Of a stretch of 64,000 bases of DNA, positions 2,893 to 20,262 are shown in pieces; position 1 is the first letter of the stretch; each line of letters begins with the position of its first letter. A program made the translations under genes and the position numbers. Below the pieces are notes generated by a model that made no database searches, was not told the origin of the DNA, and saw only the letters and a program-made list of their open reading frames with translations. Origin of the DNA: an uncultured Bacteroides sp. (GTDB lineage: Bacteria > Bacteroidota > Bacteroidia > Bacteroidales > GCA-2748055); the NCBI GenBank assembly GCA_964500835.1, contig CAZCQL010000005.1:27733-91732 (forward strand). Direction: 5' to 3'.

Positions 2893-3975
2893 ATGTGGGA
2901 TATCGCAACAACAAAGCCTGTTATCGGGTGCCGGCTGAGGCGCAATGCGGGGTCTTTGATTCTGGCACTTGCCTTATCTTTATTGCATAGTGGGCTATAT
3001 GCCCAGAAAAATTCCTCTGAATCAAAGGACCGGCTGGCATTGGTCATCGGCAATTCCACCTATTTAACCGGGCCCCTTCTAAATACCGTTAATGATGCAC
3101 GGGCCATGGCATTGGCTCTCAAAAGTTCAGGCTTTGAAGTCATCCTTAAGGAAAATGTGACCAATCAGAATGAGATGAAAAAGGCTGTGCGAGAATTTGG
3201 TACAAAACTCAAAACAGGGGGCACAGCCCTTTTCTACTATTCGGGGCATGGCATGCAGGTGAATGGATATAATTATTTAATTCCCACGCAAGCTGTAATG
3301 AACATCGTTGAGGAGATTGAATACGAGGCACTGGATGTGGGTTTCGTGCTTGCCTATATGGAGAGTGCAAAATCAAATGTAAATATTGTAATTCTGGATG
3401 CGTGCAGGAATAATCCGTTTGCCCGCACATTCAGAGATACCAAACAGGGATTAAGCAGCATGGTAGCTCCCAAGGGGACGATGATAGCCTATTCAACTGC
3501 TCCTGGTTCCATCGCTTCGGATGGAGAGGAAGATTATGGATTGTATACACATGCGTTACTGGAGCAGATCCAAACACCCGGTCTAAGAGTGGAGGATGTG
3601 TTTAAAAATGTGAGAGCCGAAGTTTTAAAAGATAGCCGTGGTCAGCAGACTCCCTGGGAATCAAGTTCGCTCGTGGGTAACTTTTATTTTCACAAGGGGA
3701 CAATGCAAGAACCGCAACAGGAGTTTAATGCATCAGTAATTCCTCAGGATGCAATCAAACTTACAGGCACGAAGCTATCATTTAGGTGGAAGGCTACCCC
3801 GGATGCGAATTACTTCCTTGAAGTGGAGGATCGGGAAATTAGCGCTGAAACAATTTATGAGTGGCGCGGGGAGCACCTCTATGTCTACCATGAAGCAACC
3901 AACAGGGTTTTTATATTAAAGTGGTTCGGTTACCGTCTTGACGGAACCTGGCGCAAGGGTACCTACTTTGAATAA
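2893..3975 (+). CDS. Caspase-family (C14) peptidase, exported, with an uncharacterised C-terminal domain
   Basis: LALVIGNSTY...NDARAMALAL. Catalytic His is in YYSGHGMQ (H119, nt 3247-3249). Catalytic Cys is in VILDACRNNPF (C171, nt 3403-3405). The N-terminus LILALALSLLHSGLYAQ looks like a signal peptide. Confidence 0.8.
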   Translation: MWDIATTKPVIGCRLRRNAGSLILALALSLLHSGLYAQKNSSESKDRLALVIGNSTYLTGPLLNTVNDARAMALALKSSGFEVILKENVTNQNEMKKAVREFGTKLKTGGTALFYYSGHGMQVNGYNYLIPTQAVMNIVEEIEYEALDVGFVLAYMESAKSNVNIVILDACRNNPFARTFRDTKQGLSSMVAPKGTMIAYSTAPGSIASDGEEDYGLYTHALLEQIQTPGLRVEDVFKNVRAEVLKDSRGQQTPWESSSLVGNFYFHKGTMQEPQQEFNASVIPQDAIKLTGTKLSFRWKATPDANYFLEVEDREISAETIYEWRGEHLYVYHEATNRVFILKWFGYRLDGTWRKGTYFE

Positions 3976-5692: not shown

Positions 5693-5785
5693 TGAACGAA
5701 CTCGCATTGGAGTGCCTGCAACCGATTATTTGTTGCTTCAAATCCTATGTTATCAGATTTTTTTCTCACGATTAATTATACTTTG

Positions 5786-5793
5786 TATCTTTG
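5786..5793 (+). promoter_or_regulatory. Candidate Bacteroidota -7 promoter box (TATCTTTG, matches TAnnTTTG) upstream of the PKS gene
   Basis: It is the only exact TAnnTTTG match I found in the 338-bp gap 5693-6030. It lies 237 nt upstream of the ATG, and there is no convincing -33 TTTG at the proper spacing. Confidence 0.2.
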
Positions 5794-6030
5794 TCCTTCG
5801 AACTATTCTACGAGAAGTCTTGCTTGGCAGATGAAATTCTTATCCGGGATTAATTACCTATAAACGCACAGCTGACTTATTCAATGAGCTTTGTCTACAT
5901 ATTTTGGGCCATGTAATTTATAATTCTTTGTATAAGAAATTGGTAGAATAGGAAAAGAATAATAATTTCGCATTCACAAAATCAGAAAGTAAAATTGCGT
6001 TCTGGTTCGGTGGGTTAATAACAAACTTGC

Positions 6031-9000
6031 ATGCAGAAGATGGAGAGAAAAAAGAGAGAACCCTTGGCAATTGTGGGGATTGGATGCAGATTCCCGGGAA
6101 ATGTAACAAATACGGACGAATTCTGGAAATTAATTATTGATAGAGTTGATGGGTTGACAGATATCCCGGCCGATCGGTGGAATTCAAGCGCCAAATATGC
6201 GCCCGATTTCAAAACTCCAGGTAAGATTAGCGTTCGAAGAGGAGGATTTATTAAGGATATTGACAAGTTTGATGCATCTTTCTTTGGTATCTCGCCCCTG
6301 GAAGCATCGCGTATGGATCCTCAACAGAGGATGATTTTGGAACTTTCCTACGAGGCTGTCGAAAACTCCGGTCTTACCCTGAAAGACCTTGATGGGTCCC
6401 GCACGTCTGTTTTTATTGGTATTTCCTCCCATGATTATGGTGATATCCAAAACTCCCCTGTGGAACAGGTCAATATAGGAGCGCACACCAATCTTGGATC
6501 TGCACTTTGTATCGCTGCCAACAGAATCTCATATTTTTATAACCTTAAGGCCCTCAGCATGGCGCTTGATACAGCTTGTTCATCCTCTTTGAATGCTGTT
6601 CATCTGGCTTGCCGGAGCATTTGGGATAAGGATGCTGATCTTGCATTTGCAGGGGGGGTTAACTCCATTTTAAAACCCGAGCCCGAGATGGGCTTTTCCA
6701 AAGGCGGATTTCTCTCCCCCGACGGAAAATGTTATGCATTTGATTCCCGTGCCAATGGGTATATCAGAAGCGAGGGAGCCGGCATAATTATCATAAAAAC
6801 CCTGTCCCGGGCTATCAAGGACAAGGACCTTATTTATGCTACTATTAGGGGCTCCGGGGTGAATCAGGATGGCACTACCAAGGGAATATCAGTTCCCAGT
6901 CAGATTGCACAGCAGGAAATGATTCAAATGGCTTACGACGATGCCGGTGTTGATACCAGACAGGTTAAATTCATTGAGGCACACGGTACAGGTACCTTCG
7001 TGGGTGATCCTATTGAAGCCACATCTATTGGGAAGGTCCTCGGGAGCAACCGAACAGATAATTGCTATTTGGGATCTGTTAAATCCAATATAGGACATCT
7101 TGAACCAGCCTCAGGCATTGCAGGAATTATCAAGTTGGCTCTTGCCATGGAGAACAGGATCATCCCGCCAAATATTCATTATAAAAAACCAAACCCAAAT
7201 ATCCCTTTCAGCGATTTGAAGCTTGAGGTGCCGGTTGAACCTGTCGAATGGAAAGACGAGGAAAACGGAAACGTTTATGGAGGCATAAATAACTTTGGAT
7301 TTGGAGGAGCCAATGTACATGTGGTTTTGGAAGGACTTCCCAGGCCAACTGTCATTTTGCCTGATAAAGTTGATAAAATGAGTGTATGCACGCTCTCTGC
7401 CAGAGATTCCCAGGCCTTAAGAGAATTGGCGGAAGCATATATCAGCTATTTTAAAGACAGCACCAATACATCGAGCCTGAGTGATATCTGTTACTCAGCC
7501 ACAGTTCGCAGAACACATCACAACAACCGTTTATCTGTCGTGGCTGAATCAAAGATGGAGATGGCAGATCACCTTCAGAAGTACCTTGATGGTGAAACTC
7601 TTACTGAAGTTTCTACAGGACGGAGCAATGAACCCAATGATAGGGTAGTGTTTGTTTTCTCCGGCCAGGGGCCTCAATGGTGGGCCATGGGCCGGCAGTT
7701 ACTCAATAATGAACCGGTTTTTGCCAAGACAATTCATTTGCTTGATAAGCTTCTCAGTACACATGCTGATTGGTCTCTGCTGGACGAACTCACAAAAGAT
7801 GAGGGATCTTCAAGGATTAGTGAGACTAATATTGCACAACCTGCCATATTTTCAATCCAAATCGCCCTTTTAGAAATGTGGAAGGAGTTGGGGATATCTC
7901 CTTCTGCGGTGGTTGGTCATAGCATCGGTGAGGTACCGGCTGCATATGCTTCAGGGGCATTGACCTTAGAACAGGCAGTCCTGCTTATTTTCCACAGAAG
8001 CCGTGTACAGGTGAAGGCTACAGATAAAGGAAGAATGCTGGCCGCCGGATTACCCATTGAAGAAGCAACTGAGCTAATTTCTGGCCGTGAGGATAAGGTG
8101 TCTATTGCGGCAGTAAACGGACCGGCCATGGTCTCCCTGTCCGGGGATACAGATGTGATTGAGCAAATTTCAGAGGAGCTGGAAAAACAGGATGTATTCA
8201 ACCGGATGTTGCAGATCAATGTTCCGTTTCACTGTCACCACATGGAACCATTAAAAGAAGAGCTCTTGAGCTCGCTTGAATCATTAAACCCAAGAGCTAC
8301 ATCAATCCCATTTTATTCCACGGTGACAGGAATGGTAATTGAAGGAGAAAAACTCGACAATAAATACTGGTACCGTAATGTAAGGGAGACAGTTAGTTTT
8401 GCAAGTGCTATTGATGAATTGATACATGACGGATTTGATACGTTCATAGAACTGGGTCCTCATCCCATTCATGCCATGGGGATCAATGACCTTCTTGATG
8501 TAAAGCAGAAGAGCGGCCTTGTGATCCCATCCATCAGAAGACAGGAAGAGGAAAAACGCACGTTTCTTTCCTCGCTTGGAAAGCTTTATACCTGGGGCAC
8601 CGAAATTAATTGGGAATCATTATTTGATGATCCCCATTTTGTGCGCCTTCCGGCATACCCGTGGCAGAAGGAAAGACATTGGCTGGAGACAGAGGATGGA
8701 AGAAATGAACGCCTTGGATCCTTGGTTCATCCACATTTGAAAAAGAAAACCATATCGGCCAGAGAAAGCCACAACATTATCTGGGACATCAACCTGGATA
8801 AGAGGACCCACCCTTATATTGATGACCATAAAGTACAAGGTCCCATTGTTTACCCCGGAGCCGGTCACATTGAACTTTCAATCTCGGCAGCATTGGCTTC
8901 ATTTGGTGAGAAATTTGAATTCCTGGAAGATCTCAACTTTGAAAGCGCCTTATTTCTCCCTGATTCAGGAGACCCCATTAAGGTACAGATGGATATTTCC

Positions 9001-12000
9001 CATGACGGTGGGGATTATTTTATATATTCAAAACCACGCAGCGAGAATGCATCATGGGTCATGTGTTCCAATGGCAAAATGAATCATATAATGGATTCTT
9101 TTCAATCCATTAAGGTTGATTTTGAGGATGTGCGGAATCGGATAAAGATACCTGTACCTGTAAAGGAAATGCACGAAGAGCTTCTGGAAAGCGGACTCTA
9201 CCTTGGACCCACCTTCCGGGCAATAAAGCATTTATGGAGAGGCGAAAAGGAGTGGGAGTCATTCAGTGAGATAGAAGTCCATGAGAGCATCCGATCGGAG
9301 TTCTTCCAATTCAACCTTCATCCCGGAGTACTGGATAGTTGCTTTCAGACCGTATTCGGGATATTTAATGTCAGGGAAGACACTGAGAAAAAAATGGGCG
9401 TCTATGTCCCGGTCCATATCGATCGGATAAAGTTTCATAAAAAGCCCAATTCCTTTAAAATGTTTGTCTACGGGAGGTTAAGGGAATGGACCGATGAATA
9501 TGCATTGGGAGAGTTATGGATATTTAATGAAGAGGGGGAAATCCTGGCAGAATTTCAGGGATTCCGTTCACAATACCTGAAAGGCTCAAGGGGAGAATCA
9601 GCCGGAGAACAGGAAAAATGGTTTTACGAATACAACTGGAACATGAAATCCAGATCTGACCAGGAACTTGTCCGAAATCCCGGCGAATATATCTCCTCAC
9701 CCAATGCCATCAGGGATCAGGTAAACGAGACGATCGATCAGATAAAAGAGCTGCCTGCACAGGCTGACTATTATTCTAATTATGAGCCCAGGCAATACAA
9801 GTTAACCATTGGTTATATCTGCAATGCCCTCAAAGAAATGGGGATGTCCTTCAGTACAGGGACAAAGATCAATGTGCCCGGTCTGATTAAGGAATTAGGG
9901 GTGATCAAGGATCATCACCGGCTCTTTTACCATATATTCACTTTGCTGAGAAATGCAGGAATCGTGGAGGGTGCCAAGGATGAGTATCGGGTCATAAAAA
10001 CCCCTGATTTCAGGGATACTAAAATCTGGATTGATGAAATCAATAAAAAATATCCCCAGTTTGAGCATGAAACAACCCTTCTTGGTCGTTGCGGACCTGA
10101 AATTGCAGGGGTTCTGACCGGTTTGGTGGATCCTATTCAGTTGATTTTTCCTGAAGATCAATGGGATCTTATTGTTAAATATTACGTAGAAGGATTTGCC
10201 TTCAAGAAGTACAACAGTCTCGCTTCCAGCATTGTTACTGAGTTGGTGAGTAAGATACCTGAAGATCAAACCTTACGCATACTTGAAATTGGAGCCGGAA
10301 CAGGTGGAATGACCCAGGCTGTTCTGCCATTGTTACCTGCCGGGAGGACAGAATACTATTATACAGATCTCTCCCATATGTTCATGTTGAAGGCACAGCA
10401 AAGGTTTGCCAGGTATCCCTTCGTGCAGTATAAGTTGCTGGATATTGAAAAGGATCCGGGAGAGCAAGGACTTGATCTGAACTCATTTGACCTGGTCATC
10501 GCTTCTGATGTGATCCATGCCACACGAAATCTGAAAACCACTTTTGGCAACGTGAAACGTTTGCTTGCTTCGGAAGGAATACTGCTTATGCTGGAGGTGA
10601 CCAACTCTCCGGTATACCTCGATTTCATCTTTGGGATGACAGAGGGCTGGTGGTTATTTGAAGATACGGATATACGGCCGGATCATGCCACCATGAGTCC
10701 TGATCGCTGGAGGCAAGTTCTAGAGCGGGAAGAGTTTTCGGATGTGGCAGTGTACAGTGATTTTGAAAACAATGATTCCTCATGCCAGAGTGTGATTCTG
10801 GCCCGGAATAATAAATTGGATCTGACCAATAAAGCATTGGAGGAATCTCCTAAGCTTGGAAAGGCAGATTGGCTTGTATTCGCCGATGACACAGGGATTG
10901 CTGATCTCGTTCAGTCCAAACTCAGGGCAATTAATAAGAAACCTTACCTTGTAAAGCGCGCTGAGCATTTTAAGCAAATTAGTGAAACTGAATTTGGGAT
11001 TGACCCTGGGAGCCAGGAAGAGACAGACCGGGTAATCGATATGGTTGCTGATAAAGGGGCGTTTGAGGGTATAGTGTTCCTGTGGGGATTGGATTCTGTT
11101 TCCAATGAGCAGCTTACTGCTGAAAGCATAGTACATGCCGAGGATAAGTCATCCCTTGAGATGATGAATATTATGCGGCGGTTGAATGAAACCAATTACG
11201 AAAAGAATCCTGAGATCTGGATGATCACATCAGGTGCCCAGTCGGTTGATCAATCGCCCGAAACAGTCCAACTCTCCCAGGCCGGATTACGAGGGGTTAA
11301 CAGGGTTATTATCAATGAATTTCCAGTTTTCAACTCCACCATGGTTGATTTCAGTAATCCAATCAAGGAGGAAGAGATTGAGGCATTTATAGAAGAAATT
11401 CTGGTGGGGGATAACGAGGATGAGATCGCTTACAGAGGAAGGAACCGGTTTATCAACAGGCTTGAAAGAATCTCTACGGATAATATTGCCCACCGTGCCT
11501 TGCGGACTCTGGCCGCTGAGGATTCACCTTATAAAGTGAGTATCGACGAATACGGTGTTCTGGACAACCTGGTTATAAGAGAAACAGCCCTCAGGGAACC
11601 TGCTTATGACGAGGTGGAGGTAGATATCAAAGCATCGGCTCTAAATTTTAGAGACATCATGCTTTCCATGGGATTGCTTTCCGAGGATGCCATCCGGGGA
11701 GGATTGTTTGGAGCTACCATGGGATTGGAGTGCTCAGGTGTGGTAACGGCTGTTGGAAAGGATGTTCAGGGGGTGAAGGTGGGTGACGAGGTAATGGCCA
11801 CTGCACCTTCCTGTCTGGGTAAATATGCCTATCCAAAGGCCTGCCATGTGGTGCAAAAACCGGAGAACATCAGTTTCTCCGACGCGGCAACACTGCCGGT
11901 GGTTTACGTGACTGCTTATTATTCCCTGGTCTATCTATCCAGGATTAGAAAAGGGGAGAAGATACTTATTCATGCTGCTGCAGGTGGCGTAGGCATTGCT

Positions 12001-14448
12001 GCCATCCACATTGCAAAAGCGGCAGGTGCGGTAATCTATGCCACAGTGGGCAGTGAAGAAAAGAAGGCCTATCTGGAAAGCATCGGTGTTCCATCTGGCC
12101 ATATCTTAAATTCCAGGACACTGGAATTTGCAGATCAGCTTATGGAGCTGACCGAAGGAGAAGGAGTAGACATAGTTCTCAACTCTCTTTCCGGAGAAGC
12201 TATCTTTAAAAGCATCAGGTGCCTGGCACCTTACGGAAGATTTGTCGAGATTGGGAAAACCGATATTTACCGCAACAGCAAGCTCGGATTACAGCCATTT
12301 GGCAATAACCTCTCCTATTTTGGAGTGGATGTGGACAGGCTTTTTAAGCAAAAAGAGGAGTTCAGCGGAGAGCTGTTCCAGGAATCAATTGATTATTTCG
12401 TTGATAATAAGTTTCCTGTGCACCCATCGGTTGTATACCCTATTTCCGAGATCAAGGATGCCTTCCAGTTTATGGCAGGAGCCCGGCACATTGGCAAAAT
12501 AGTCATCGGTATGCAAGGTGAAGTACAAGTTGCCCCACCTAAGGAGATCCGGTTCAAAGAGAAGGCTTCCTATTTGCTCACAGGCGGATGCTCAGGATTT
12601 GGACTTGCTGTGGCCGACTGGATGACCACCCGGGGTGCGAAGCACCTGGTTCTGATGAGCAGGAGCGGTCCCAAGACCAGCGATGAAAAGAAGACCATTG
12701 AAAGGATACGCGAGCGGGGTATTGATGTGATGATTGCACAAGGGGATGTGTCAAAGAGGGCGGATGTTGACCGGATAATGGGCGAGGTAAAAGAAAAAAT
12801 GCCCCCCCTGAAAGGAATTCAGCATGCAGCCATGGTTTTAGATGACGGTAGTATACCTGAAATTGATCATGAGCGCTACCTGAAGGTTTTTATACCAAAA
12901 AGTATAGGTTGCTGGCTATTGCATGAGGCTACGAAGAATTTGGAACTAGACCATTTTGTACTTTATTCTTCCATATCTTCTATTTATGGCAATCCCGGAC
13001 AGGTGAGCTATGTAGCTGGAAATAGTTTTCTGGAGAATTTCGCACAATTCAGGCGCTCACAGGGAATGCCTGCGATGACTATTAACTGGGGGGTACTTGG
13101 TGATGTTGGATTTGTTGCGAGAAGCGGAAATGTAGGTGGGTTGCTATATAAGCAGGGATGGAAAACATTTACATTGAAGCAATCAACCGATATCCTTGAG
13201 CAGATGCTGCTTACCAATCCGGTACAGCGTGTAGCCACCGATTCGGATTGGGAAATGGTGGGTAATTTCTATCCGCATTCGAGCAAAACAAGCCGTTTTG
13301 GTCACCTGATTAAAGAAAAGGAATTGATTGCAGGTTCTGCATCAGGCGCAGGAGATGGTGGATTGAGTGCCACTTTAAAGGAATTAAGCAAAGAGGAACA
13401 ACCAGACGTTCTGGTAACTCATTTGCGTGATGCCGTTGCCCGGGTTCTTGGTTCGTCGGCAGAGAAAGTTGATCCTACGGAACCGGTGACAAAGTATGGT
13501 CTTGATTCCTTAATGGCCAATCAGATCAGGAATTGGATTCAGAGCAGTGTGGCTGTGGATTATTCTATGATGCGGATAATGAAAGGGCCGACTTTGCAGG
13601 AAATGACAGCTCATATCCTGGATGAAATGAATGGTCAGCTAAGTGGTGGAGAAAGTCAGGGTGAAGAGAAATCAGAATTGGATAAGTGGGTGCTGAGGTC
13701 AGCAAAGATAGATAATCCGCGGATGCGGCTTTTCTGCCTTCCCTATTTTGCAGGGGGCGCATCTGTTTACAACAGCTGGAATGAACATTTACAGAATGGC
13801 ATTGAGGTCTGCGCCATTCAATATCCGGGCCGGGAAGAGCGTATAGGTGAAAAACCATTTGATAATTATCTTGACCTTGTCAAGGCGATTTCAGACATTA
13901 TTGACCCGTTGCTGGACTGTCCCATTGCTTTTTATTGCCATAGTGCAGGTGCAGGTATAGGATTGGAACTGGCCAGGTACCTGAGAAAGGAAAAAGGCAT
14001 CCAGCCAGTTAAATTTATTGTGGGCGGTTGGCGATCTCCCCATCTTGAGAGTCCCTTTAAGTTCCTTGATGCCATTCACGATGATGAGGTTTATATGGAT
14101 AAAAATATACCAAATATTCTCAACCACCTGAGATCCCTGGAGATACCGGAATCAGTCCTGCAGAACAAGGAATTAATTGACGAGATGCTGCCGGCCCTTC
14201 GCGCAGACATACTTCTGGGCAAGCGCTACACCTATTATGAAGATGAACCTTTGAATTGTCCTGTGACGGCGTTGACAGGGAAGGATGATACCGTTTTTTC
14301 CGAGGAACAGGTCAAGGCGTGGAAGAAGCATACATCGGGTGAATTCAGATTCATAAAAGTGAATGGTAGTCACCTGTTTTGCAGGGACAACAAAGAAGAA
14401 CTCCTGGAATTACTGTCTGAGGAGTTGATGGAATTTGCGCATGTCTGA
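6031..14448 (+). CDS. Type I polyketide synthase / FAS-like megasynthase, single polypeptide KS-AT-DH-CMeT-psiKR-ER-KR-ACP-TE (2805 aa)
   Basis: One uninterrupted 8418-nt ORF. All signature motifs are present in order: DTACSSS, GHSIGE, HKVQGPIVYP, LEIGAGTGG, HAAAGGVGIAA, TGGCSGFG, GLDSL, CHSAG. See the domain features below. Confidence 0.95.
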   Translation: MQKMERKKREPLAIVGIGCRFPGNVTNTDEFWKLIIDRVDGLTDIPADRWNSSAKYAPDFKTPGKISVRRGGFIKDIDKFDASFFGISPLEASRMDPQQRMILELSYEAVENSGLTLKDLDGSRTSVFIGISSHDYGDIQNSPVEQVNIGAHTNLGSALCIAANRISYFYNLKALSMALDTACSSSLNAVHLACRSIWDKDADLAFAGGVNSILKPEPEMGFSKGGFLSPDGKCYAFDSRANGYIRSEGAGIIIIKTLSRAIKDKDLIYATIRGSGVNQDGTTKGISVPSQIAQQEMIQMAYDDAGVDTRQVKFIEAHGTGTFVGDPIEATSIGKVLGSNRTDNCYLGSVKSNIGHLEPASGIAGIIKLALAMENRIIPPNIHYKKPNPNIPFSDLKLEVPVEPVEWKDEENGNVYGGINNFGFGGANVHVVLEGLPRPTVILPDKVDKMSVCTLSARDSQALRELAEAYISYFKDSTNTSSLSDICYSATVRRTHHNNRLSVVAESKMEMADHLQKYLDGETLTEVSTGRSNEPNDRVVFVFSGQGPQWWAMGRQLLNNEPVFAKTIHLLDKLLSTHADWSLLDELTKDEGSSRISETNIAQPAIFSIQIALLEMWKELGISPSAVVGHSIGEVPAAYASGALTLEQAVLLIFHRSRVQVKATDKGRMLAAGLPIEEATELISGREDKVSIAAVNGPAMVSLSGDTDVIEQISEELEKQDVFNRMLQINVPFHCHHMEPLKEELLSSLESLNPRATSIPFYSTVTGMVIEGEKLDNKYWYRNVRETVSFASAIDELIHDGFDTFIELGPHPIHAMGINDLLDVKQKSGLVIPSIRRQEEEKRTFLSSLGKLYTWGTEINWESLFDDPHFVRLPAYPWQKERHWLETEDGRNERLGSLVHPHLKKKTISARESHNIIWDINLDKRTHPYIDDHKVQGPIVYPGAGHIELSISAALASFGEKFEFLEDLNFESALFLPDSGDPIKVQMDISHDGGDYFIYSKPRSENASWVMCSNGKMNHIMDSFQSIKVDFEDVRNRIKIPVPVKEMHEELLESGLYLGPTFRAIKHLWRGEKEWESFSEIEVHESIRSEFFQFNLHPGVLDSCFQTVFGIFNVREDTEKKMGVYVPVHIDRIKFHKKPNSFKMFVYGRLREWTDEYALGELWIFNEEGEILAEFQGFRSQYLKGSRGESAGEQEKWFYEYNWNMKSRSDQELVRNPGEYISSPNAIRDQVNETIDQIKELPAQADYYSNYEPRQYKLTIGYICNALKEMGMSFSTGTKINVPGLIKELGVIKDHHRLFYHIFTLLRNAGIVEGAKDEYRVIKTPDFRDTKIWIDEINKKYPQFEHETTLLGRCGPEIAGVLTGLVDPIQLIFPEDQWDLIVKYYVEGFAFKKYNSLASSIVTELVSKIPEDQTLRILEIGAGTGGMTQAVLPLLPAGRTEYYYTDLSHMFMLKAQQRFARYPFVQYKLLDIEKDPGEQGLDLNSFDLVIASDVIHATRNLKTTFGNVKRLLASEGILLMLEVTNSPVYLDFIFGMTEGWWLFEDTDIRPDHATMSPDRWRQVLEREEFSDVAVYSDFENNDSSCQSVILARNNKLDLTNKALEESPKLGKADWLVFADDTGIADLVQSKLRAINKKPYLVKRAEHFKQISETEFGIDPGSQEETDRVIDMVADKGAFEGIVFLWGLDSVSNEQLTAESIVHAEDKSSLEMMNIMRRLNETNYEKNPEIWMITSGAQSVDQSPETVQLSQAGLRGVNRVIINEFPVFNSTMVDFSNPIKEEEIEAFIEEILVGDNEDEIAYRGRNRFINRLERISTDNIAHRALRTLAAEDSPYKVSIDEYGVLDNLVIRETALREPAYDEVEVDIKASALNFRDIMLSMGLLSEDAIRGGLFGATMGLECSGVVTAVGKDVQGVKVGDEVMATAPSCLGKYAYPKACHVVQKPENISFSDAATLPVVYVTAYYSLVYLSRIRKGEKILIHAAAGGVGIAAIHIAKAAGAVIYATVGSEEKKAYLESIGVPSGHILNSRTLEFADQLMELTEGEGVDIVLNSLSGEAIFKSIRCLAPYGRFVEIGKTDIYRNSKLGLQPFGNNLSYFGVDVDRLFKQKEEFSGELFQESIDYFVDNKFPVHPSVVYPISEIKDAFQFMAGARHIGKIVIGMQGEVQVAPPKEIRFKEKASYLLTGGCSGFGLAVADWMTTRGAKHLVLMSRSGPKTSDEKKTIERIRERGIDVMIAQGDVSKRADVDRIMGEVKEKMPPLKGIQHAAMVLDDGSIPEIDHERYLKVFIPKSIGCWLLHEATKNLELDHFVLYSSISSIYGNPGQVSYVAGNSFLENFAQFRRSQGMPAMTINWGVLGDVGFVARSGNVGGLLYKQGWKTFTLKQSTDILEQMLLTNPVQRVATDSDWEMVGNFYPHSSKTSRFGHLIKEKELIAGSASGAGDGGLSATLKELSKEEQPDVLVTHLRDAVARVLGSSAEKVDPTEPVTKYGLDSLMANQIRNWIQSSVAVDYSMMRIMKGPTLQEMTAHILDEMNGQLSGGESQGEEKSELDKWVLRSAKIDNPRMRLFCLPYFAGGASVYNSWNEHLQNGIEVCAIQYPGREERIGEKPFDNYLDLVKAISDIIDPLLDCPIAFYCHSAGAGIGLELARYLRKEKGIQPVKFIVGGWRSPHLESPFKFLDAIHDDEVYMDKNIPNILNHLRSLEIPESVLQNKELIDEMLPALRADILLGKRYTYYEDEPLNCPVTALTGKDDTVFSEEQVKAWKKHTSGEFRFIKVNGSHLFCRDNKEELLELLSEELMEFAHV
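6058..7332 (+). other. PKS domain: ketosynthase (KS)
   Basis: EPLAIVGIGCRFPG. Active-site Cys183 is in DTACSSS (nt 6577-6579). His318 is in EAHGTGT and His355 in NIGHLE. The domain ends at GGANVHVVLE. Confidence 0.9.
7642..8520 (+). other. PKS domain: acyltransferase (AT), malonyl-type motif
   Basis: FVFSGQGPQW. Ser631 is in GHSIGE. VPFH lies about 100 aa downstream, at the position of HAFH (malonyl) versus YASH (methylmalonyl). Confidence 0.85.
8719..9585 (+). other. PKS domain: dehydratase (DH)
   Basis: HxxxGxxxxP motif is HKVQGPIVYP (His933). The second-half motif is HPGVLDSCFQ (DxxxQ). Boundaries are approximate. Confidence 0.8.
9778..10806 (+). other. PKS domain: SAM-dependent C-methyltransferase (CMeT)
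   Basis: Motif I is LEIGAGTGG (nt 10282-10308). It is followed by YYYTDLS, FDLVIASDVIHAT and LLASEGILLMLE (class I MT motifs). The domain lies between DH and psiKR/ER. Boundaries are approximate. Confidence 0.75.
10864..11460 (+). other. PKS domain: structural KR subdomain (psi-KR)
   Basis: A Rossmann-like stretch (DWLVFADDTG...IVFLWGL) precedes the ER, as in fully reducing modules. Assigned by position, so boundaries are approximate. Confidence 0.5.
11536..12510 (+). other. PKS domain: enoylreductase (ER, MDR family)
   Basis: VEVDIKASALNFRD, GLECSGVVTAVG, the NADPH motif LIHAAAGGVGIAA, and HIGKIVI at the end. Confidence 0.85.
12565..13116 (+). other. PKS domain: ketoreductase (KR), B-type
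   Basis: TGGCSGFGLAVADWM (Rossmann). An LDD motif sits in AAMVLDDGS. The catalytic region is YSSISSIYGNPGQVSYVAGN. Confidence 0.85.
13393..13620 (+). other. PKS domain: acyl carrier protein (ACP)
   Basis: Single carrier domain. The phosphopantetheine Ser2493 is in KYGLDSLMANQIRNW (nt 13507-13509). Confidence 0.85.
13717..14430 (+). other. PKS domain: thioesterase (TE, alpha/beta hydrolase, PF00975-like)
   Basis: RLFCLPYFAGGASVYNSW...IQYPGRE. The nucleophile elbow is CHSAG (Ser2638). The Asp is in LTGKDD and the His in NGSHLF. Confidence 0.8.
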
Positions 14449-15208
14449 TCCGATTCTTCTGAATCTTACTAAAACAGTAACATTTACGCCACTATTAAAA
14501 GGAGAGGTTCACTTATGGACTGCATCTCTGGTTGTTGGAGCAGACCAGGTAAACCGGCTAAGGTCTGAATTATCCACCCCTGAGCAGGAAAAGGCCTCTT
14601 TTTATAAGTTTGAAGCTGTCCAACGCCGGTACATAGTCTCCCAGGCAATTTTAAAATTGCTCCTTGCGGCTTACACTGGTTCAGAACCTTCGGAAATAGG
14701 GTACGGATACCATACAAAGGGCAAACCTTTCCTGATGAATGATGCTTCCCTATTTTTCAATATGTCCCATTCCCATGAGATGTGTGTGTATGCTTTTTCA
14801 CGAGATGCTGAAGTGGGCATCGATATCGAAATGATCCGGGAACTTCCAGATCTGGACCAGCTGATAAATACGAATATAACTCCCAGGGAGATGAAATATT
14901 TTCAGAATGGGCCGGAGGAGAGGTTGCACCGGTTCTTTCAATTCTGGACCTTTAAGGAGTCTTATCTGAAGGCCATAGGAGAGGGAATGCGCCTGACACC
15001 GGAGAACCTTGAGTTTTCAATGGAGCAGGGGGGAATTATTAAGCTGCAATCCTCAAATTTTGGAGTGGATGAAGAAGACTGGCTATTCAGGTGTTTTACC
15101 AGGGAGGGCAACTACACAGGGACACTCACCTATACAGGAAAGGATACCGTCTTCAAAGAAATGAAGGTCGACTTGGAGGCCGGCCTAACCCTTCCTGGCT
15201 CCTCCTAA
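14435..15208 (+). CDS. 4'-phosphopantetheinyl transferase, Sfp type
   Basis: Motifs are TKGKPF, FNMSHSH, VGIDIE and FWTFKESYLKAIG. The start (ATG 14435 or 14441) overlaps the PKS stop codon (14446-14448): ATGCGCATGTCTGA. Confidence 0.85.
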   Translation: MRMSDPILLNLTKTVTFTPLLKGEVHLWTASLVVGADQVNRLRSELSTPEQEKASFYKFEAVQRRYIVSQAILKLLLAAYTGSEPSEIGYGYHTKGKPFLMNDASLFFNMSHSHEMCVYAFSRDAEVGIDIEMIRELPDLDQLINTNITPREMKYFQNGPEERLHRFFQFWTFKESYLKAIGEGMRLTPENLEFSMEQGGIIKLQSSNFGVDEEDWLFRCFTREGNYTGTLTYTGKDTVFKEMKVDLEAGLTLPGSS

Positions 15209-15340
15209 CCCTTCCTGGCTCCTCCTAACCCTTCCTGGCACTACTGGCCCCTCCAGGCTCTCCTGACCCCTCCTGGCTCCTCCTGGCTCCTCCTGGCTCC
15301 TCCTGACCCCTCCTGGCTCTCCTTACCGCTCCTGGCACCA
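15183..15340. repeat. Pyrimidine-rich tandem decamer array, about 16 units (TCCTGGCTCC / TCCTAACCCT / TCCTGACCCC)
   Basis: Read directly. TCCTGGCTCC is exact at 15193, 15213, 15271, 15281 and 15291. TCCTAACCCT is at 15203 and 15223, with GCCTAACCCT at 15183. TCCTGACCCC is at 15261 and 15301. A degenerate 18-nt centre (15243-15260) shifts the phase by 2. The array fills the convergent gap between the PPTase and the PIG-L gene. Confidence 0.9.
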
Positions 15341-15349
15341 ACCTTCCCA

Positions 15350-16219
15350 TTACTTCTTCAACATAGGAAACAACCTCCTAATCTCATCATCAGTTGGTTG
15401 CTTGCCGTACTCACAAATTTCAAATGCCTCGGCATGTTTAGCTGAAGCTGCTTTATCTCCATACCAGTACTTCAGGCTTTCCATGACAGATTCACCCGGA
15501 GTATCCGTTCTCCATTTAGCTAAAAATTCCAACCTTGATTTTTCATCTTCGGGAACTTTATCCAATCCACCGGAAATCCAGGGGAGCCAGTCAAAATACT
15601 GGGATTCATGAGCGGCCATGGCATAAATTTTCTGATCAAACACGTCATCGGTGATCACGGCAATATCCGGCTTAAAAGGATTCGGTTTCTGAAATCTGTC
15701 GTTGGAGTATAAAAAGACCGGATTCTTCTTCAACGCAGGAACTTCCGGTGCAATATTGGGGACAATGACCATAAAAGAAGCATCCTGCACCAGTACACCG
15801 GTATACCGGTGATCGGGATGGTAGTCGTTGGTTCTGGGCCCGATGACAATGTCGGAATTCCATTTTCTGATCTCCCTGATCACTTTTAACCGGTTTGCCA
15901 GAGTAGGCATGAGTTCTCCATCATGGTTATCGAGAAGAACGTATTCCACGCCGAACCTCCTGCCGGCTTCCTGCGCTTCCGCAATTCTTATTTTTGCCAG
16001 CTCCCCACCGCCCATGGCATAATGCCCTGCATCTCCATTGGTAAGGGATACAAATTTCACATGATGACCCATTTTTGCGAATAAGATGGCAGTGCCTCCG
16101 GCATCGGAATCACAGTCATCCGGGTGGGCTCCGAATACAATGACATTTATGGGTTCCTCTTGTGCTGCAATAAGACCAACACTGAAAACGAGGCAACATA
16201 TGATGATTAGTTTTTTCAT
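15350..16219 (-). CDS. PIG-L/LmbE-family deacetylase, secreted
   Basis: Signal peptide MKKLIIICCLVFSVGLIAAQ. VIVFGAHPDDCDSDAGGT...LTNGDAGH...HPDH is the PIG-L zinc-binding signature. Confidence 0.8.
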   Translation of the reverse strand: MKKLIIICCLVFSVGLIAAQEEPINVIVFGAHPDDCDSDAGGTAILFAKMGHHVKFVSLTNGDAGHYAMGGGELAKIRIAEAQEAGRRFGVEYVLLDNHDGELMPTLANRLKVIREIRKWNSDIVIGPRTNDYHPDHRYTGVLVQDASFMVIVPNIAPEVPALKKNPVFLYSNDRFQKPNPFKPDIAVITDDVFDQKIYAMAAHESQYFDWLPWISGGLDKVPEDEKSRLEFLAKWRTDTPGESVMESLKYWYGDKAASAKHAEAFEICEYGKQPTDDEIRRLFPMLKK

Positions 16220-16236: not shown

Positions 16237-17640
16237 TTAAGTAAGTCGCATTAAATCAGGATCCCAGCTCACTGGGTTTCCGCTGAAGTAACTTTCATTG
16301 GCTAAAAGGGCCGCACCTGCAGCACGCAGGCCAAATGTGGGATCTTCGACAATTTTTGTTACTCCCCTTATGCCCTGGAAGAAATTATTAAAATGATCAT
16401 AATGACTACCCTTGTAATCATCGGGGGCTTCATAGACAGTTTCACCTATATTCAGATCGGAAGATCTCTCTGCGGCAAATCTTTTATCGTAGTCTGCAAT
16501 AATCTTTTTCTGATTCTCCTCCGTGTTTGCGATCAGGGCATAGCTACCGGGTTTCATCCCCAGTTTTGAACGGGTTAATTTTACACGGCGCGAATCTACT
16601 TCCATTTCGCCTTCTGTTCCAACCAGTTTAAATCCGCCGCCTCCTCCTCCTCCGGCAATGAAGTTCACCCTGAAAGAAGCATTAAATGCAGCGTGTGTTT
16701 TTGTTTCCGGATAATCATACAAGGTCATGGTCACATCGGGAACATCCCTGCCGTCTTTCCAGTATCTCAGTCCGCCCGTTGAGAGCGCTCTGTTCGGCCC
16801 GTTTGAAGTCAGGATAAAATGCAGTGTCGAAAATGCATGAACAAAGAGGTCACCAGCTACTCCGGTACCATAATCTCTGTAATTCCTCCAACGGAAAAAG
16901 CGCACCAGTTCGTAAGGTACTTTTGGGGCATTCCCGAGAAATTTATCGAAATCAACCGTGTCCGGACTTGCATCTGGCGGTATGGGGTACTGCCAGGCAC
17001 CTTCCGCAGAATACCGGTCATTGTACATATCCAGCATCACTATCTCGCCAATGGCCCCTTCGCCATACAATTTTTTGGCCTTCTCATTTCCGAGGGAAGA
17101 CATGCCCTGACTGCCTACTTGTAATATGTTCCCGGAAGCCTTCTGTGCTTCGATTATCTCCTGCCCCTCCTCAAATTTTTGCACCATGGGTTTTTCACAG
17201 TACACGGCTTTCCCTGCCTTCAAAGCTTCAATACTGAGTCTTTTATGCCAGTGATCCGGGGTGGCAATAATGACTGCATCCACGTTCTTGCGATCAAAAA
17301 TCTCCCGGTAATCCCTGGTTACGAATATATCATTGCCCCACAATTCTTTTGCGCGATCCAGGCGGCCTGTATATAAATCACAAGAAGCGACCAGCTTTAC
17401 TCCCGGAACCCGGAGTGCTGTGATTGTGTCATTGATTCCCTGAATACCTGTGCCGATCAATGCGAGATTTATCTGGTCGTTTGCCTCAAACGAATTCGCT
17501 GCATATGATCTTGATTCCATCAATAACCTCTGACGGTAGGTCTTGGCCAGAACATAAGGTGCTGTAGAAACCATCGCTGTACCCAGCACGGTCTTTTTAA
17601 TAAACGATCTCCGGGAACTTTTGCTTTCAAATTTTTTCAT
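16237..17640 (-). CDS. Gfo/Idh/MocA-family oxidoreductase with twin-arginine signal
   Basis: Start placed at the ATG at 17640: MKKFESKSSRRSFIKKTVLG (Tat motif SRRxFIK). LALIGTGIQG is the Rossmann motif. IIATPDHWH and YCEKPM are also present. Confidence 0.8.
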   Translation of the reverse strand: MKKFESKSSRRSFIKKTVLGTAMVSTAPYVLAKTYRQRLLMESRSYAANSFEANDQINLALIGTGIQGINDTITALRVPGVKLVASCDLYTGRLDRAKELWGNDIFVTRDYREIFDRKNVDAVIIATPDHWHKRLSIEALKAGKAVYCEKPMVQKFEEGQEIIEAQKASGNILQVGSQGMSSLGNEKAKKLYGEGAIGEIVMLDMYNDRYSAEGAWQYPIPPDASPDTVDFDKFLGNAPKVPYELVRFFRWRNYRDYGTGVAGDLFVHAFSTLHFILTSNGPNRALSTGGLRYWKDGRDVPDVTMTLYDYPETKTHAAFNASFRVNFIAGGGGGGGFKLVGTEGEMEVDSRRVKLTRSKLGMKPGSYALIANTEENQKKIIADYDKRFAAERSSDLNIGETVYEAPDDYKGSHYDHFNNFFQGIRGVTKIVEDPTFGLRAAGAALLANESYFSGNPVSWDPDLMRLT

Positions 17641-17859
17641 AGGATGAAGAATTACTGAATAATAAAGGAAGTTGTAATTTACATTTTCCTGGGTATAGAA
17701 AGAATTGATTTTGCAGAAATATATCAAATTACGTTATCAATAATCGGACGGCACATTCGCCTGGTGGACGCAACGCATTCAATACACAGCCTATGAAGGG
17801 TATTTCACAGGACAGGTAAGTGCCTAACTCAATTTCTGAAACCGAGAATGATGTCCGAT

Positions 17860-20262
17860 TTACTCGTATCTGAGAGCTTCAATGGGATTCTTGTTGGATG
17901 CTCTCCAGGATTTTACTGAAACAGTGAGTAAGGCAATAATAACACCCGCAAGACCTGCTATGGCAAATATCCACCAACTGAGGGTAGTTTTGTAGGCAAA
18001 GCTCTCCAGCCATCTGTTCATGGCAAAGTAGGCAAACGGAATTGCCAGCATGATTGAGACGAGAATCCATTTTAAAAAATCCCAGGTAAGCATGGTCATG
18101 ATTTCTATTGTTTCCGCACCGTTTACTTTCCGGATCCCAATCTCCTTGATTCGGCGCTGGGTTATCAACAGGGACAACCCAAGTAACCCCATGGAGCAGA
18201 TAAACAAAGCAATTATTGTGAAGATAGTTAGCAACTGCGCCTGAAGGAGTTCGGTTGAATAAACATTCCTGTACATCGAGTTGACATATTCTAAATGTGC
18301 AGTATATTCTGGAAACAATGCTTGCCAGACGGTTTCTATGTCCTTCAGGGCCGCCTCCTGCATTCCGGTTTGAAATGATATGACAAAATTGATAAGCCAC
18401 AGGTCCTTTCTTTTAAACAGTACCAGGGGCTCAATCTTTTTCTTTAAGCTCGAGAGATGAAAGTCCCGGACAACCCCGATGATGGAACCGGAAGGAATGG
18501 GTATGCTTCCATCCCCAAACAGCAGGCTAAACTCTTTACCTACTATATCTTCCGGTTTTGAATAGTTCAGCCGTCTCATGGCTGACTCATTAATGATATA
18601 TTCTCCCGAACCTTCATGGTCCTCATCCCTTTCAGAAAAATCTTTCCCGCCAAGGAATTTCAATCTAAACAAGCTGGCAAAGGAGTAATCGCATGGAAAG
18701 ACACCAATCATATTATTCAGTTCATTCACATCGTCCCGAACCATTCCTTCCAGCTTGAACTGAAACATATCATTGGCATCACCCCCCGGGGGCTCAAACA
18801 TGGCTGACACCGATTTGATTGAATTGTACTTTACCATTTCCTCCTTAAATTCTACGAATTTTTGCTGGACATCGGAATGGACGCCCTCTATGCATATGAG
18901 GTTATCGTCTCCCGCTCCCAGGCTGTTATTGAGGGCATATTTTGTCTGCCGGTGGATCACAAAGACACTGGTTATCAACGCGATTGATATAGTATATTGT
19001 ACTACAATAAGGCTCTTGTTTATCCCTCCCCGTTTATCATGGATCTTGTTCTGGAAATCCAGTGAGGTTTTGAACCTGCGAATGAACTTCCTCAACAACG
19101 GTAGAATACCTGCGGCGATTCCGAGCAGGCTAAACAACACTGAAACCGATGCGATGAACAGCGTGTTCCCTGTGTAGAGGTTCAGGTTAAACTGTTTTTG
19201 AACGAATATGAAGACAATCGATGCAATGATAGCGCTAACCACCAGTGAGACGAGAGCAATGACAATTCCTTCAGTCAGAAAATACCTCAGTTGCATCCGG
19301 TTTGAAGACCCGTACACCTTCCCCATGAAAAGGAATTTGTCGCTGTAGCCCGCCATCCCAATATTTAAATTGGCGTAGTTAATGAGTGCAATGATCAGGA
19401 GCAACAGGGCAGCTAATGTAAAAGTGTATATGACGGACATCGTGCTGTTTGCTTCTATCTCTCTTGTTTTATTGGAATGCAGATGGATATCAATAAGAGG
19501 TTGAAGATGGGCAATCGTTCGAATACTATCTGAATCTGTGGATGTGTAGGTGGCAAGGAAATCTTTAAATCCCGATATAATGTTTTCCGGATTCGAGTTG
19601 GCATGCAAAACCAGGTAGGTCCATGCCCATGCCTGAAAAATACTATCATCAGGTGGAGTGGTAATGAAATCAGGATGGAAATGGCTGCTTTGCGGGAAAT
19701 CCTTCATTATTCCCGTGATTGTATAATCGGCGTTCCCGGCATAGAATTGTCCCGGTGGCAGTGTCAGGATTTCCCCTATGGGATCAGATTCTCCAAATGT
19801 TTTACTTGCAAAGCTTTCAGAAACAACCATGGAGCCCGGGCCATCCAGGACATATGCCGGATTGCCTACCACGAGTTCGGCGTCAAATACCTGAAAAAAT
19901 GTGCTGTCACATTCAAATGCCTGGCTGAATGTAAAGAATTCTTCCAAGCGTTTCATTACACCTCCTCGTATGGGCGCCAACCTCACAAATGTTTCAACCT
20001 CAGGAAAATAATTTACCAGGTCAGGAACATAAGAGGGATTAGGCATCCTCGCAAAATGTTTCCCGTTGAAAAAATTCTGGCTGGTGGTGGTGAGCCGGTA
20101 AATCCTGTCTGATTTAGAATGAAACCTGTCAAAAGTAAGTTCATGTTTCAAAAACAATACAATAAGCAGTATGCAGCTGAGTGCCAGGCTGAGTCCCACA
20201 ATTTTCACAAGATTGAGGAACGGTCTTCTCCGGAGATTCCGGAGTACAAATTTTCCAGTCAT
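17860..20262 (-). CDS. ABC transporter permease, FtsX/MacB-like (two FtsX domains)
   Basis: 800 aa with the typical N-terminus NLRRRPFLNLVKIVGLSLAL. There are two large extracytoplasmic domains and two 4-TM blocks. The C-terminus SWRASNKNPIEALRYE is the family signature ending. Confidence 0.8.
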   Translation of the reverse strand: MTGKFVLRNLRRRPFLNLVKIVGLSLALSCILLIVLFLKHELTFDRFHSKSDRIYRLTTTSQNFFNGKHFARMPNPSYVPDLVNYFPEVETFVRLAPIRGGVMKRLEEFFTFSQAFECDSTFFQVFDAELVVGNPAYVLDGPGSMVVSESFASKTFGESDPIGEILTLPPGQFYAGNADYTITGIMKDFPQSSHFHPDFITTPPDDSIFQAWAWTYLVLHANSNPENIISGFKDFLATYTSTDSDSIRTIAHLQPLIDIHLHSNKTREIEANSTMSVIYTFTLAALLLLIIALINYANLNIGMAGYSDKFLFMGKVYGSSNRMQLRYFLTEGIVIALVSLVVSAIIASIVFIFVQKQFNLNLYTGNTLFIASVSVLFSLLGIAAGILPLLRKFIRRFKTSLDFQNKIHDKRGGINKSLIVVQYTISIALITSVFVIHRQTKYALNNSLGAGDDNLICIEGVHSDVQQKFVEFKEEMVKYNSIKSVSAMFEPPGGDANDMFQFKLEGMVRDDVNELNNMIGVFPCDYSFASLFRLKFLGGKDFSERDEDHEGSGEYIINESAMRRLNYSKPEDIVGKEFSLLFGDGSIPIPSGSIIGVVRDFHLSSLKKKIEPLVLFKRKDLWLINFVISFQTGMQEAALKDIETVWQALFPEYTAHLEYVNSMYRNVYSTELLQAQLLTIFTIIALFICSMGLLGLSLLITQRRIKEIGIRKVNGAETIEIMTMLTWDFLKWILVSIMLAIPFAYFAMNRWLESFAYKTTLSWWIFAIAGLAGVIIALLTVSVKSWRASNKNPIEALRYE

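Follow-up and report, generated by a model that had tools for sequence, protein, structure and literature searches.

The 64,000-nucleotide stretch analysed here in full (the window), from contig CAZCQL010000005.1 of an uncultured Bacteroides sp., contains a two-gene operon composed of a monomodular type I polyketide synthase (PKS) and a 4'-phosphopantetheinyl transferase (PPTase). On balance we lean towards the view that the operon encodes a self-contained, iterative PKS of the fatty acid synthase (FAS) type together with its dedicated PPTase, predicted to make a saturated methyl-branched fatty acid for a lipid. An earlier reading made from the letters alone (the sequence-only reading) had described a single 8418-nt open reading frame (ORF) with a complete domain series, and Pfam annotation finds all nine domains, with intact motifs, in that order: ketosynthase (KS), acyltransferase (AT), dehydratase (DH), C-methyltransferase (CMeT), structural ketoreductase subdomain (psiKR), enoylreductase (ER), ketoreductase (KR), acyl carrier protein (ACP) and thioesterase (TE). 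Each motif quoted in that reading is present at the residue given for it and no essential residue is missing, the catalytic residues being invariant or nearly so in an alignment of 100 full-length homologs, 67 from the Bacteroidota clade and 33 more distant. The cassette and its borders are composed of the following features, in window coordinates.

5693-6030, plus strand: upstream intergenic region of 338 bp, presumed to hold the cassette promoter.
6031-14448, plus strand: monomodular type I PKS gene, 8418 nt, 2805 aa, from the ORF and Pfam annotation.
6058-7335, plus strand: KS, Pfam residues 10-384, followed by the KS-AT linker; PF00109/PF02801; C183, H318, H356.
7648-8601, plus strand: AT, Pfam residues 540-857; PF00698, 252 bits; S631, R656, VPFH at 731-734.
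8728-9600, plus strand: DH, Pfam residues 900-1183; H933 in HxxxGxxxxP, GLYLGPTF, D1102.
9718-10800, plus strand: CMeT, lid and class I core, Pfam residues 1230-1569; HTH_51 and methyltransferase matches.
10873-11400, plus strand: psiKR, Pfam residues 1615-1787; weak PF21394 match.
11533-12510, plus strand: ER, Pfam residues 1860-2159; NADPH motif HAAAGGVG (1981).
12565-13230, plus strand: KR, B-type, Pfam residues 2179-2356; TGGCSGFG (2184), LDD, SYVAGN; Ser, Tyr and Asn catalytic residues.
13408-13635, plus strand: single ACP, Pfam residues 2465-2529; GLDSL, Ser2493.
13708-14430, plus strand: C-terminal TE, type-II-TE-like, Pfam residues 2566-2796; PF00975; S2638, D2753, H2781.
14441-15208, plus strand: Sfp/HetI-type PPTase gene, 255 aa from the ATG at 14441.
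15350-16219, minus strand: next downstream gene (PIG-L), convergent to the PPTase gene, from the ORF list.

The catalytic residues of the condensing and loading domains are preserved throughout the family. The KS triad lies in the motifs DTACSSS (C183), EAHGTGT (H318) and NIGHLE (H356) and is invariant in the 100 homologs. Both S631 of the AT, in GHSIGE, and its carboxylate-binding R656 are conserved in 100% of the aligned sequences, and from GHSIGE, the Phe of VPFH and the ETNIAQPA motif we infer that the AT is of the malonyl type. Across the same alignment, H933 (HKVQGPIVYP) and D1102 (LDSCFQ) of the DH are also invariant. The TE carries its triad in CHSAG (S2638), GKDD (D2753) and GSH (H2781). 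With an intact 8.4-kb ORF and invariant catalytic residues, a pseudogene or an artefact was ruled out as an explanation of the PKS gene.

The CMeT bears on the prediction of a methyl branch. C-methyltransferases of PKSs use a His-Glu dyad (PMC9821293). In the window's enzyme, the SAM (S-adenosylmethionine) motif LEIGAGTGG (1418) is accompanied by a His1496-Glu1522 dyad that is invariant in the family, and in the alignment with the CurJ C-methyltransferase, the His of (D/N)V(I/L)HAT and the Glu of L-x-L-E coincide exactly, 26 residues apart in both proteins. In addition, the mean identity to the query in the 100-homolog alignment is 0.76 for the CMeT core, compared with 0.72 for the KS and 0.72 for the AT, while the psiKR and linker are the least conserved parts of the PKS. 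The invariant motifs, together with a core conserved as well as the KS and AT, argue against a decayed pseudo-methyltransferase, and the CMeT, having kept its SAM motif and His-Glu dyad, is apparently active. This prediction also bears on the idea that the megasynthase replaces the housekeeping type II FAS as the main fatty-acid synthase. The complete FAS-type reducing loop with a TE, and a family that is conserved and vertically distributed in Bacteroidota lineages, agree with such a role, but a conserved, apparently active CMeT would branch the bulk lipids and the cassette occupies variable, non-core contexts, so that we give this idea hardly any credence.

The structure of the modifying region of MAS, a mycobacterial synthase (5bp4), aligns to PKS residues 1713-2361, supporting the psiKR-ER-KR arrangement. 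At the two ends of the protein, the KS already begins at residue 10 and the TE extends to residue 2800 of 2805, which leaves no room for docking domains. The latter observation weighs strongly against the proposal that the protein belongs to a split assembly line and depends on modules encoded at other places in the genome, a proposal suggested by the resemblance of the KS, AT and CMeT to cis-AT modular domains. With no N- or C-terminal docking region, the protein runs from KS start to TE end. Moreover, dozens of genomes show the same lone PKS with its PPTase, some of them on contigs of 0.2-1.5 Mb, no second PKS gene is located within 8-10 kb on either side in the relatives, and the KS belongs to a monomodular clade. 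A split assembly line is thus extremely improbable. In line with this, the 64-kb window contains no second PKS or nonribosomal peptide synthetase module, no loading module and no tailoring gene, as the sequence-only reading had also noted, and no other gene of polyketide or fatty-acid synthesis was identified in it.

The PPTase matches both PF01648 (ACPS) and PF22624 (AASDHPPT_N), which places it in the two-lobed Sfp-type (group II) class, and carries GIDIE and WTFKESYLKA as the GxDxE and WxxKE(S/A)xxK motifs. Its best NCBIfam match is HetI (NF042922), at 136 bits compared with a cutoff of 370; the enzyme is therefore predicted to be HetI-like and no HetI ortholog. The first in-frame ATG, at 14441, overlaps the PKS stop TGA (14446-14448) by 8 nt, ATGTCTGA, in agreement with the earlier description of an Sfp-type PPTase overlapping the PKS stop. 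The junction string given there, ATGCGCATGTCTGA, holds one wrong letter, and the DNA reads TTGCGCATGTCTGA. An ATGnnTRA start/stop overlap is kept in 11 of the 12 loci of the clade with at least 80% identity, which fits translational coupling of the two genes. The 338-bp gap upstream (5693-6030) and the convergent downstream gene (15350-16219) are likewise as first described. An alternative PKS start at ATG 6040 would give a protein of 2802 aa and matches the call in P0001. Near the cassette, a sigma-70 consensus scan returned no more than the shuffle expectation, Bacteroidota promoter types lying outside that consensus, and an intrinsic terminator scan, uninformative for Bacteroidota, also returned no more than its shuffle expectation.

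The PPTase and PIG-L genes converge on a gap that is occupied by a tandem array at 15184-15336 (153 bp, period 20, 7.8 copies, consensus CCTGACCCCTCCTGGCTCCT, 85% matches), which covers the final ~25 nt of the PPTase ORF. This repeat has no other copy anywhere in the 64-kb window.

The PKS is a member of a large family. Approximately 67 full-length relatives of about 2800 aa share 56-88% identity and the same single-protein architecture, all of them from uncultured Bacteroidota and annotated merely as 'SDR family oxidoreductase'. They derive from metagenome-assembled and single-amplified genomes labelled Bacteroidales, Flavobacteriales, Crocinitomicaceae, Cyclobacteriaceae, Roseivirgaceae and Salinivirgaceae. 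Chitinispirillaceae and heterocystous cyanobacteria contain relatives at 41-51% identity. A scan of species-representative genomes agrees with this distribution, adding full-length homologs from Nocardia (39-40%) and TE-less homologs from Verrucomicrobiota and other phyla (35-40%). In a KS tree, which is a crude neighbour-joining tree with no bootstrap and a limited outgroup, the monomodular proteins group apart from the KSs of multimodular matches and the Bacteroidota clade is monophyletic.

The sequence-only reading had called the locus an orphan two-gene cassette and had proposed a search for the gene pair in related genomes. That search locates the PPTase directly 3' of the PKS in 32 of 35 related Bacteroidota loci. 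The genes that flank the cassette in the window are not conserved beside the PKS, even in relatives of at least 80% identity, with partial synteny to locus L014 as the exception. The conserved pairing between variable flanks identifies the PKS-PPTase cassette as the conserved unit, so that the description of a two-gene cassette holds; the word orphan does not, since the cassette belongs to a large Bacteroidota family and is not unique. In four loci with 51-68% identity (L011, L019, L040 and L036), no PPTase is present within the downstream sequence at hand.

One orthologous PKS, on a long-read metagenome contig (L089, 812-9243), is divided into five ORFs (KS-AT, DH, MT, a 91-aa piece and ER-KR-ACP-TE), reflecting either assembly frameshifts or a decaying copy. 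The divided gene is still trailed by PPTase, LpxL-like, ligase and GNAT-like genes.

Searches of the PDB, NCBIfam and the literature found no characterised close ortholog of the PKS, in agreement with the initial statement that such a two-gene unit had no known characterised function in this phylum. Full-text searches for a bacterial KS-AT-DH-CMeT-ER-KR-ACP(-TE) enzyme gave no bacterial example among the listed papers, nearly all of them fungal genome or pathway studies.

To place the protein among solved synthases, the whole sequence and its single domains were compared with the PDB. The whole PKS matches best with MAS (9d2z, 1020 bits), followed by DEBS-derived chains from ~823 bits, Dictyostelium Pks16 (781), LovB (708) and pig FAS (698). 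Its best NCBIfam match is Pks2 (NF041183), with 1262 bits, below the equivalog cutoff of 2400. For the KS alone, a two-KS chain (7zma) scores highest and the best single-KS chains are PikA1 and CurL (427-429 bits), with lower scores for Pks13 (381), Pks16 (357), MAS (350), LovB (325) and animal FAS (302-307). LovB and animal FAS are thus the lowest scorers among the solved reducing type I synthases compared. The best match of the CMeT is the CurJ C-methyltransferase (5thy, 248 bits), in which the SAM motif, the His-Glu dyad and EGWW are aligned. The TE is closest to RifR and RedJ-type TEs (113-115 bits), followed by mammalian TE II (76 bits), and its triad aligns to S94/D200/H228 of RifR. Chain-releasing type I TEs of the DEBS/Pik kind are absent from the PDB matches of the TE, where DEBS appears solely through the RifR part of a DEBS-RifR fusion.

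These affinities divide the initial label of a synthase like metazoan FAS or fungal highly reducing PKSs (HR-PKSs) into two parts. The layout stands; the sequence kinship does not, as for the KS, CMeT and TE the nearest sequences are those of bacterial cis-AT PKS domains and type II thioesterases. As far as such matches can tell, the label is one of layout only, and the PKS resembles bacterial PKSs domain by domain. In its descent, the PKS resembles a reducing module of the bacterial cis-AT type that turned free-standing and gained a fused TE II-like domain.

In the proposed mechanism, the PPTase would convert the apo-ACP to its holo form at Ser2493, and the AT, with its malonyl-type motifs, would load malonyl units, which the KS would condense onto an acetyl or short acyl primer. 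The CurJ-like CMeT would then use SAM to methylate the alpha-carbon of the beta-ketoacyl-ACP, and the B-type KR, the DH and the ER would reduce the chain fully. The module would be reused over several rounds, and the type-II-like TE would finally hydrolyse the chain to give a free saturated methyl-branched fatty acid. As an alternative end, the TE II-type domain may edit, and an LpxL-like acyltransferase such as those found in the relatives would take the chain from the ACP. This ending would parallel that of MAS with PapA5, as well as AcpXL/LpxXL, which put a very long chain on rhizobial lipid A.

The same domains would also be compatible with a single extension, in which a long primer from type II FAS (acyl-CoA or acyl-ACP) receives one malonyl-derived C2 unit that is methylated and fully reduced before the TE frees a 2-methyl-branched acid. 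In architecture the protein equals one reducing module of the cis-AT type, with the KS and CMeT closest to PikA1, CurL and CurJ. MAS, the best whole-protein PDB match, extends long acyl primers, and a long-chain acyl-CoA ligase located in the same operon of 15 relatives could supply them. Opposed to this, the protein lacks both a loading ACP and a loading domain of the FAAL type, neither the window nor most of the clade with at least 80% identity contains the ligase, and the ligase-GNAT pair is also found where no PKS is present. Most of the characterised bacterial PKSs that consist of a single stand-alone module are, in addition, iterative. We regard the single extension as a doubtful alternative to the iterative FAS-type synthase.

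The likely fate of the product of this iterative synthase is suggested by the extended operons of its relatives. In the clade with 62-70% identity the cassette grows to PKS-PPTase-(LpxL-like acyltransferase)-long-chain acyl-CoA ligase. A FadD11-like long-chain fatty-acid-CoA ligase (590 aa, 303 bits) is located 3' of the PPTase in 15 loci, and an LpxL/HtrB-family acyltransferase (290 aa), often before the ligase, in 7 loci, among them L065, the closest relative (88%). Moreover, a weakly GNAT-like protein of 388 aa is present in 11 loci, often after the ligase, and a PlsC-like acyltransferase is near the cassette in 6 loci. These lipid-acylation genes sharpen the acyl-chain prediction towards an envelope lipid, and, if the analogy with the extended operons holds, the chain would probably end up in an envelope or membrane lipid and not as a diffusible antibiotic.

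Among these neighbours, the LpxL-like gene is a more telling partner of the PKS than the ligase-GNAT pair. LpxL-like orthologs of at least 58% identity sit immediately after the PKS-PPTase cassette in L089 and L090 (10001-10873 in L090; the LpxL-like gene of L065 is at 17226-18089), many further ones are on contigs that agree in length with contigs bearing the PKS, and a homolog of 47% identity is found in an unrelated context. The ligase and the 388-aa GNAT-like protein were downgraded as PKS-specific partners since the two genes are also common as a pair in Bacteroidota where no PKS accompanies them; the cassette may have come to sit beside a housekeeping pair. The 388-aa protein has more than 7000 homologs and no match in the PDB or NCBIfam. 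In two loci (L085, 8432-12060, and L086, 8193-13646) the acyl-CoA ligase and GNAT-like genes form a PKS-independent conserved string with genes for an amine-oxidase-like flavoprotein and a lipid A deacylase-like protein, which may represent an uncharacterised acyl-lipid pathway.

A bolder version of the iterative reading is a self-sufficient branched-chain FAS making SAM-methylated, possibly multi-methyl (mycocerosate-like) saturated acids, which an LpxL-family enzyme would install on lipid A or another envelope lipid. In this version the enzyme would also be a bacterial case of the complete metazoan-FAS domain order in which the methyltransferase has kept its activity. We hold this version to be speculative and rather unlikely in all its parts; to our knowledge, no such lipid chemistry and no route from a PKS to lipid A has been described from Bacteroidota.

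The distant monomodular members occur in settings of another kind, at the following loci.

L054, 7980-17988: Prosthecobacter.
L059, 6493-18926: Nocardia.
L036, 16474-18261: Chitinispirillaceae.
L004, 18662-23414: Nostoc C052.

The Prosthecobacter member has a terminal reductase domain and is accompanied by a fatty-acid desaturase and MacB exporters. The Nocardia members adjoin a cytochrome P450, an FAD monooxygenase and an SDR, the Chitinispirillaceae member a GH3-family amido synthetase, and the Nostoc C052 member two TauD dioxygenases and an HlyD/FtsX exporter. The secondary-metabolite-like contexts in Nocardia, Nostoc and Chitinispirillaceae, together with a MacB/FtsX-type gene 3.4 kb downstream in the window, would suit a specialised-metabolite synthase, whose product would be a short or medium reduced methylated polyketide acid serving as a signal or antibiotic and not as part of a membrane lipid. 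This role is improbable for the Bacteroidota enzyme, because its recurrent partners are lipid-acylation and not tailoring enzymes. The MacB gene of the window is convergent, and MacB genes are near the PKS in just 3 related loci, as distant homologs (27-30%). Furthermore, conservation at 56-88% across several Bacteroidota orders is more readily expected of a physiological lipid than of a patchy antibiotic.

Several points weigh against an iterative synthase of methyl-branched lipid acids. The AT motif VPFH differs from the canonical HAFH, and the malonyl call is motif-based. The TE has its nearest matches among TE II enzymes of the editing type and could proofread instead of releasing the product. 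The pair of ligase and GNAT-like genes is also found without the PKS, so part of the linkage may be historical and not functional. No homolog of the ligase, LpxL-like, PlsC-like or GNAT-like gene is present within the 64-kb window, and the proposed lipid fate is therefore extrapolated from relatives at 62-88% identity. More generally, support for the whole family is sequence-based, and the degree of iteration, the chain length and the frequency of CMeT action would not be readable from it.

The rest of the window shows no sign of belonging to the pathway. Upstream of the PKS are genes for an adenylate-cyclase/HD protein, a caspase-like peptidase, a NIPSNAP protein and two hypothetical proteins. 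Downstream of the cassette are those for a PIG-L deacetylase, a GFO/IDH/MocA oxidoreductase, a MacB/FtsX protein and a sulfatase. The adenylate cyclase, caspase-like, NIPSNAP, PIG-L, GFO/IDH/MocA, MacB and sulfatase genes were rejected as pathway members because they do not travel with the PKS. Two of the upstream genes are placed as follows.

796-2190, upstream of the PKS: adenylate/guanylate cyclase fused to an HD domain.
2893-3975, upstream of the PKS: caspase-family (C14) peptidase.

A C14 peptidase is also located near the PKS in the relative L001, and BLAST finds no orthology across the loci. Scans of the window for tRNAs and Rfam families gave no matches.

Farther downstream, a large polysaccharide-utilisation locus at 20652-63963 looks like a sulfated-fucan degradation system. 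It encodes five sulfatases, two alpha-L-fucosidases and GH123-like, BNR/sialidase-like and GH43/32-like enzymes, together with an AraC regulator, an MFS transporter, two SusC/SusD pairs, three fasciclin-domain proteins and a PKD protein sorted by the type IX secretion system (T9SS). The utilisation locus and the T9SS-sorted protein identify the organism as a member of the Bacteroidota. The GC content is 0.50-0.55 at 24-44 kb, compared with 0.41-0.47 around the PKS.

If the iterative FAS-type reading is right, widespread uncultured Bacteroidota of marine, sediment, groundwater and lake habitats would make methyl-branched lipids by a polyketide route from malonyl-CoA and SAM, in contrast to the branched-amino-acid primers normally assumed for this phylum, and the reading of branched fatty-acid biomarkers would change. 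The cassette would also offer a compact, two-gene and heterologously testable system for methyl-branched fatty acids. In addition, given the predicted activity of its methyltransferase, the family may serve as a bacterial comparison point for the origin of the domain order of animal FAS and HR-PKS. Metagenomes contain many orphan PKS families, of which this is one, and its anatomy is mechanistically not unprecedented; the family is broad, occurs in uncultured lineages alone and, in relatives, is tied to acyltransferases of the lipid A type.

Among known systems, MAS and the MAS-like mycobacterial PKSs (Pks2, Pks5) are alike in being monomodular, fully reducing and FAS-like, and they include the best whole-protein match. 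MAS supplies envelope lipids with methyl-branched fatty acids, in concert with a FadD ligase and an acyltransferase, a logic that the extended operons of the relatives follow. It has no methyltransferase and no TE, and its branches come from a methylmalonyl-specific AT. In contrast, the Bacteroidota PKS has malonyl-type AT motifs, a CMeT as the predicted source of the branch, and a fused TE.

The closest solved CMeT is that of CurJ, which differs in being a module of the multimodular cis-AT line for curacin that acts once, whereas the Bacteroidota PKS stands alone. Metazoan FAS shares the identical linear order KS-(M)AT-DH-ME-psiKR-ER-KR-ACP-TE. The ME domain of animal FAS is a catalytically dead pseudo-methyltransferase, whereas the catalytic residues of the Bacteroidota CMeT are intact and conserved, and the KS and TE of the Bacteroidota PKS are closer to bacterial PKS and TE II. 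Fungal HR-PKSs such as LovB share the order KS-AT-DH-CMeT-psiKR-ER-KR-ACP and an active CMeT, in a module that is used iteratively, yet LovB matches less well (whole protein 708 bits, KS 325 bits). The homologous TEs RifR, RedJ and mammalian TE II are free-standing, whereas here the TE is fused to the synthase. RedJ and mammalian TE II take fatty acyl chains off carrier proteins, and RifR is an editing enzyme.

The single-module enzymes SwfA and WcbR/RkpA (KS-AT-DH-ER-KR-ACP) need an Sfp-type PPTase and have a putative lipid-like product (PMC3908369). The Swf system differs in having no MT and no TE, unusual KS motifs (HATGT), and an R-ST protein and a radical SAM enzyme as partners. Sup (SupA, 'sponge symbiont ubiquitous') is, with the MAS-like PKSs, one of the nearest known kinds; the likeness is drawn from descriptions of the enzyme and consists in the single module and the methyl-branched fatty acids. 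Its architecture probably reads KS-AT-DH-MT-ER-KR-ACP. Sup is not known to have a fused TE, and it differs further in being restricted to sponge microbiomes, with an uncertain host. It is a small single-module bacterial PKS and the proposed maker of methyl-branched fatty acids (PMC4245539, PMC9864124). FAS-like single-module enzymes tied to methyl-branched fatty acids are thus already known from MAS and Sup, and what is new here is an uncharacterised family of them in Bacteroidota.

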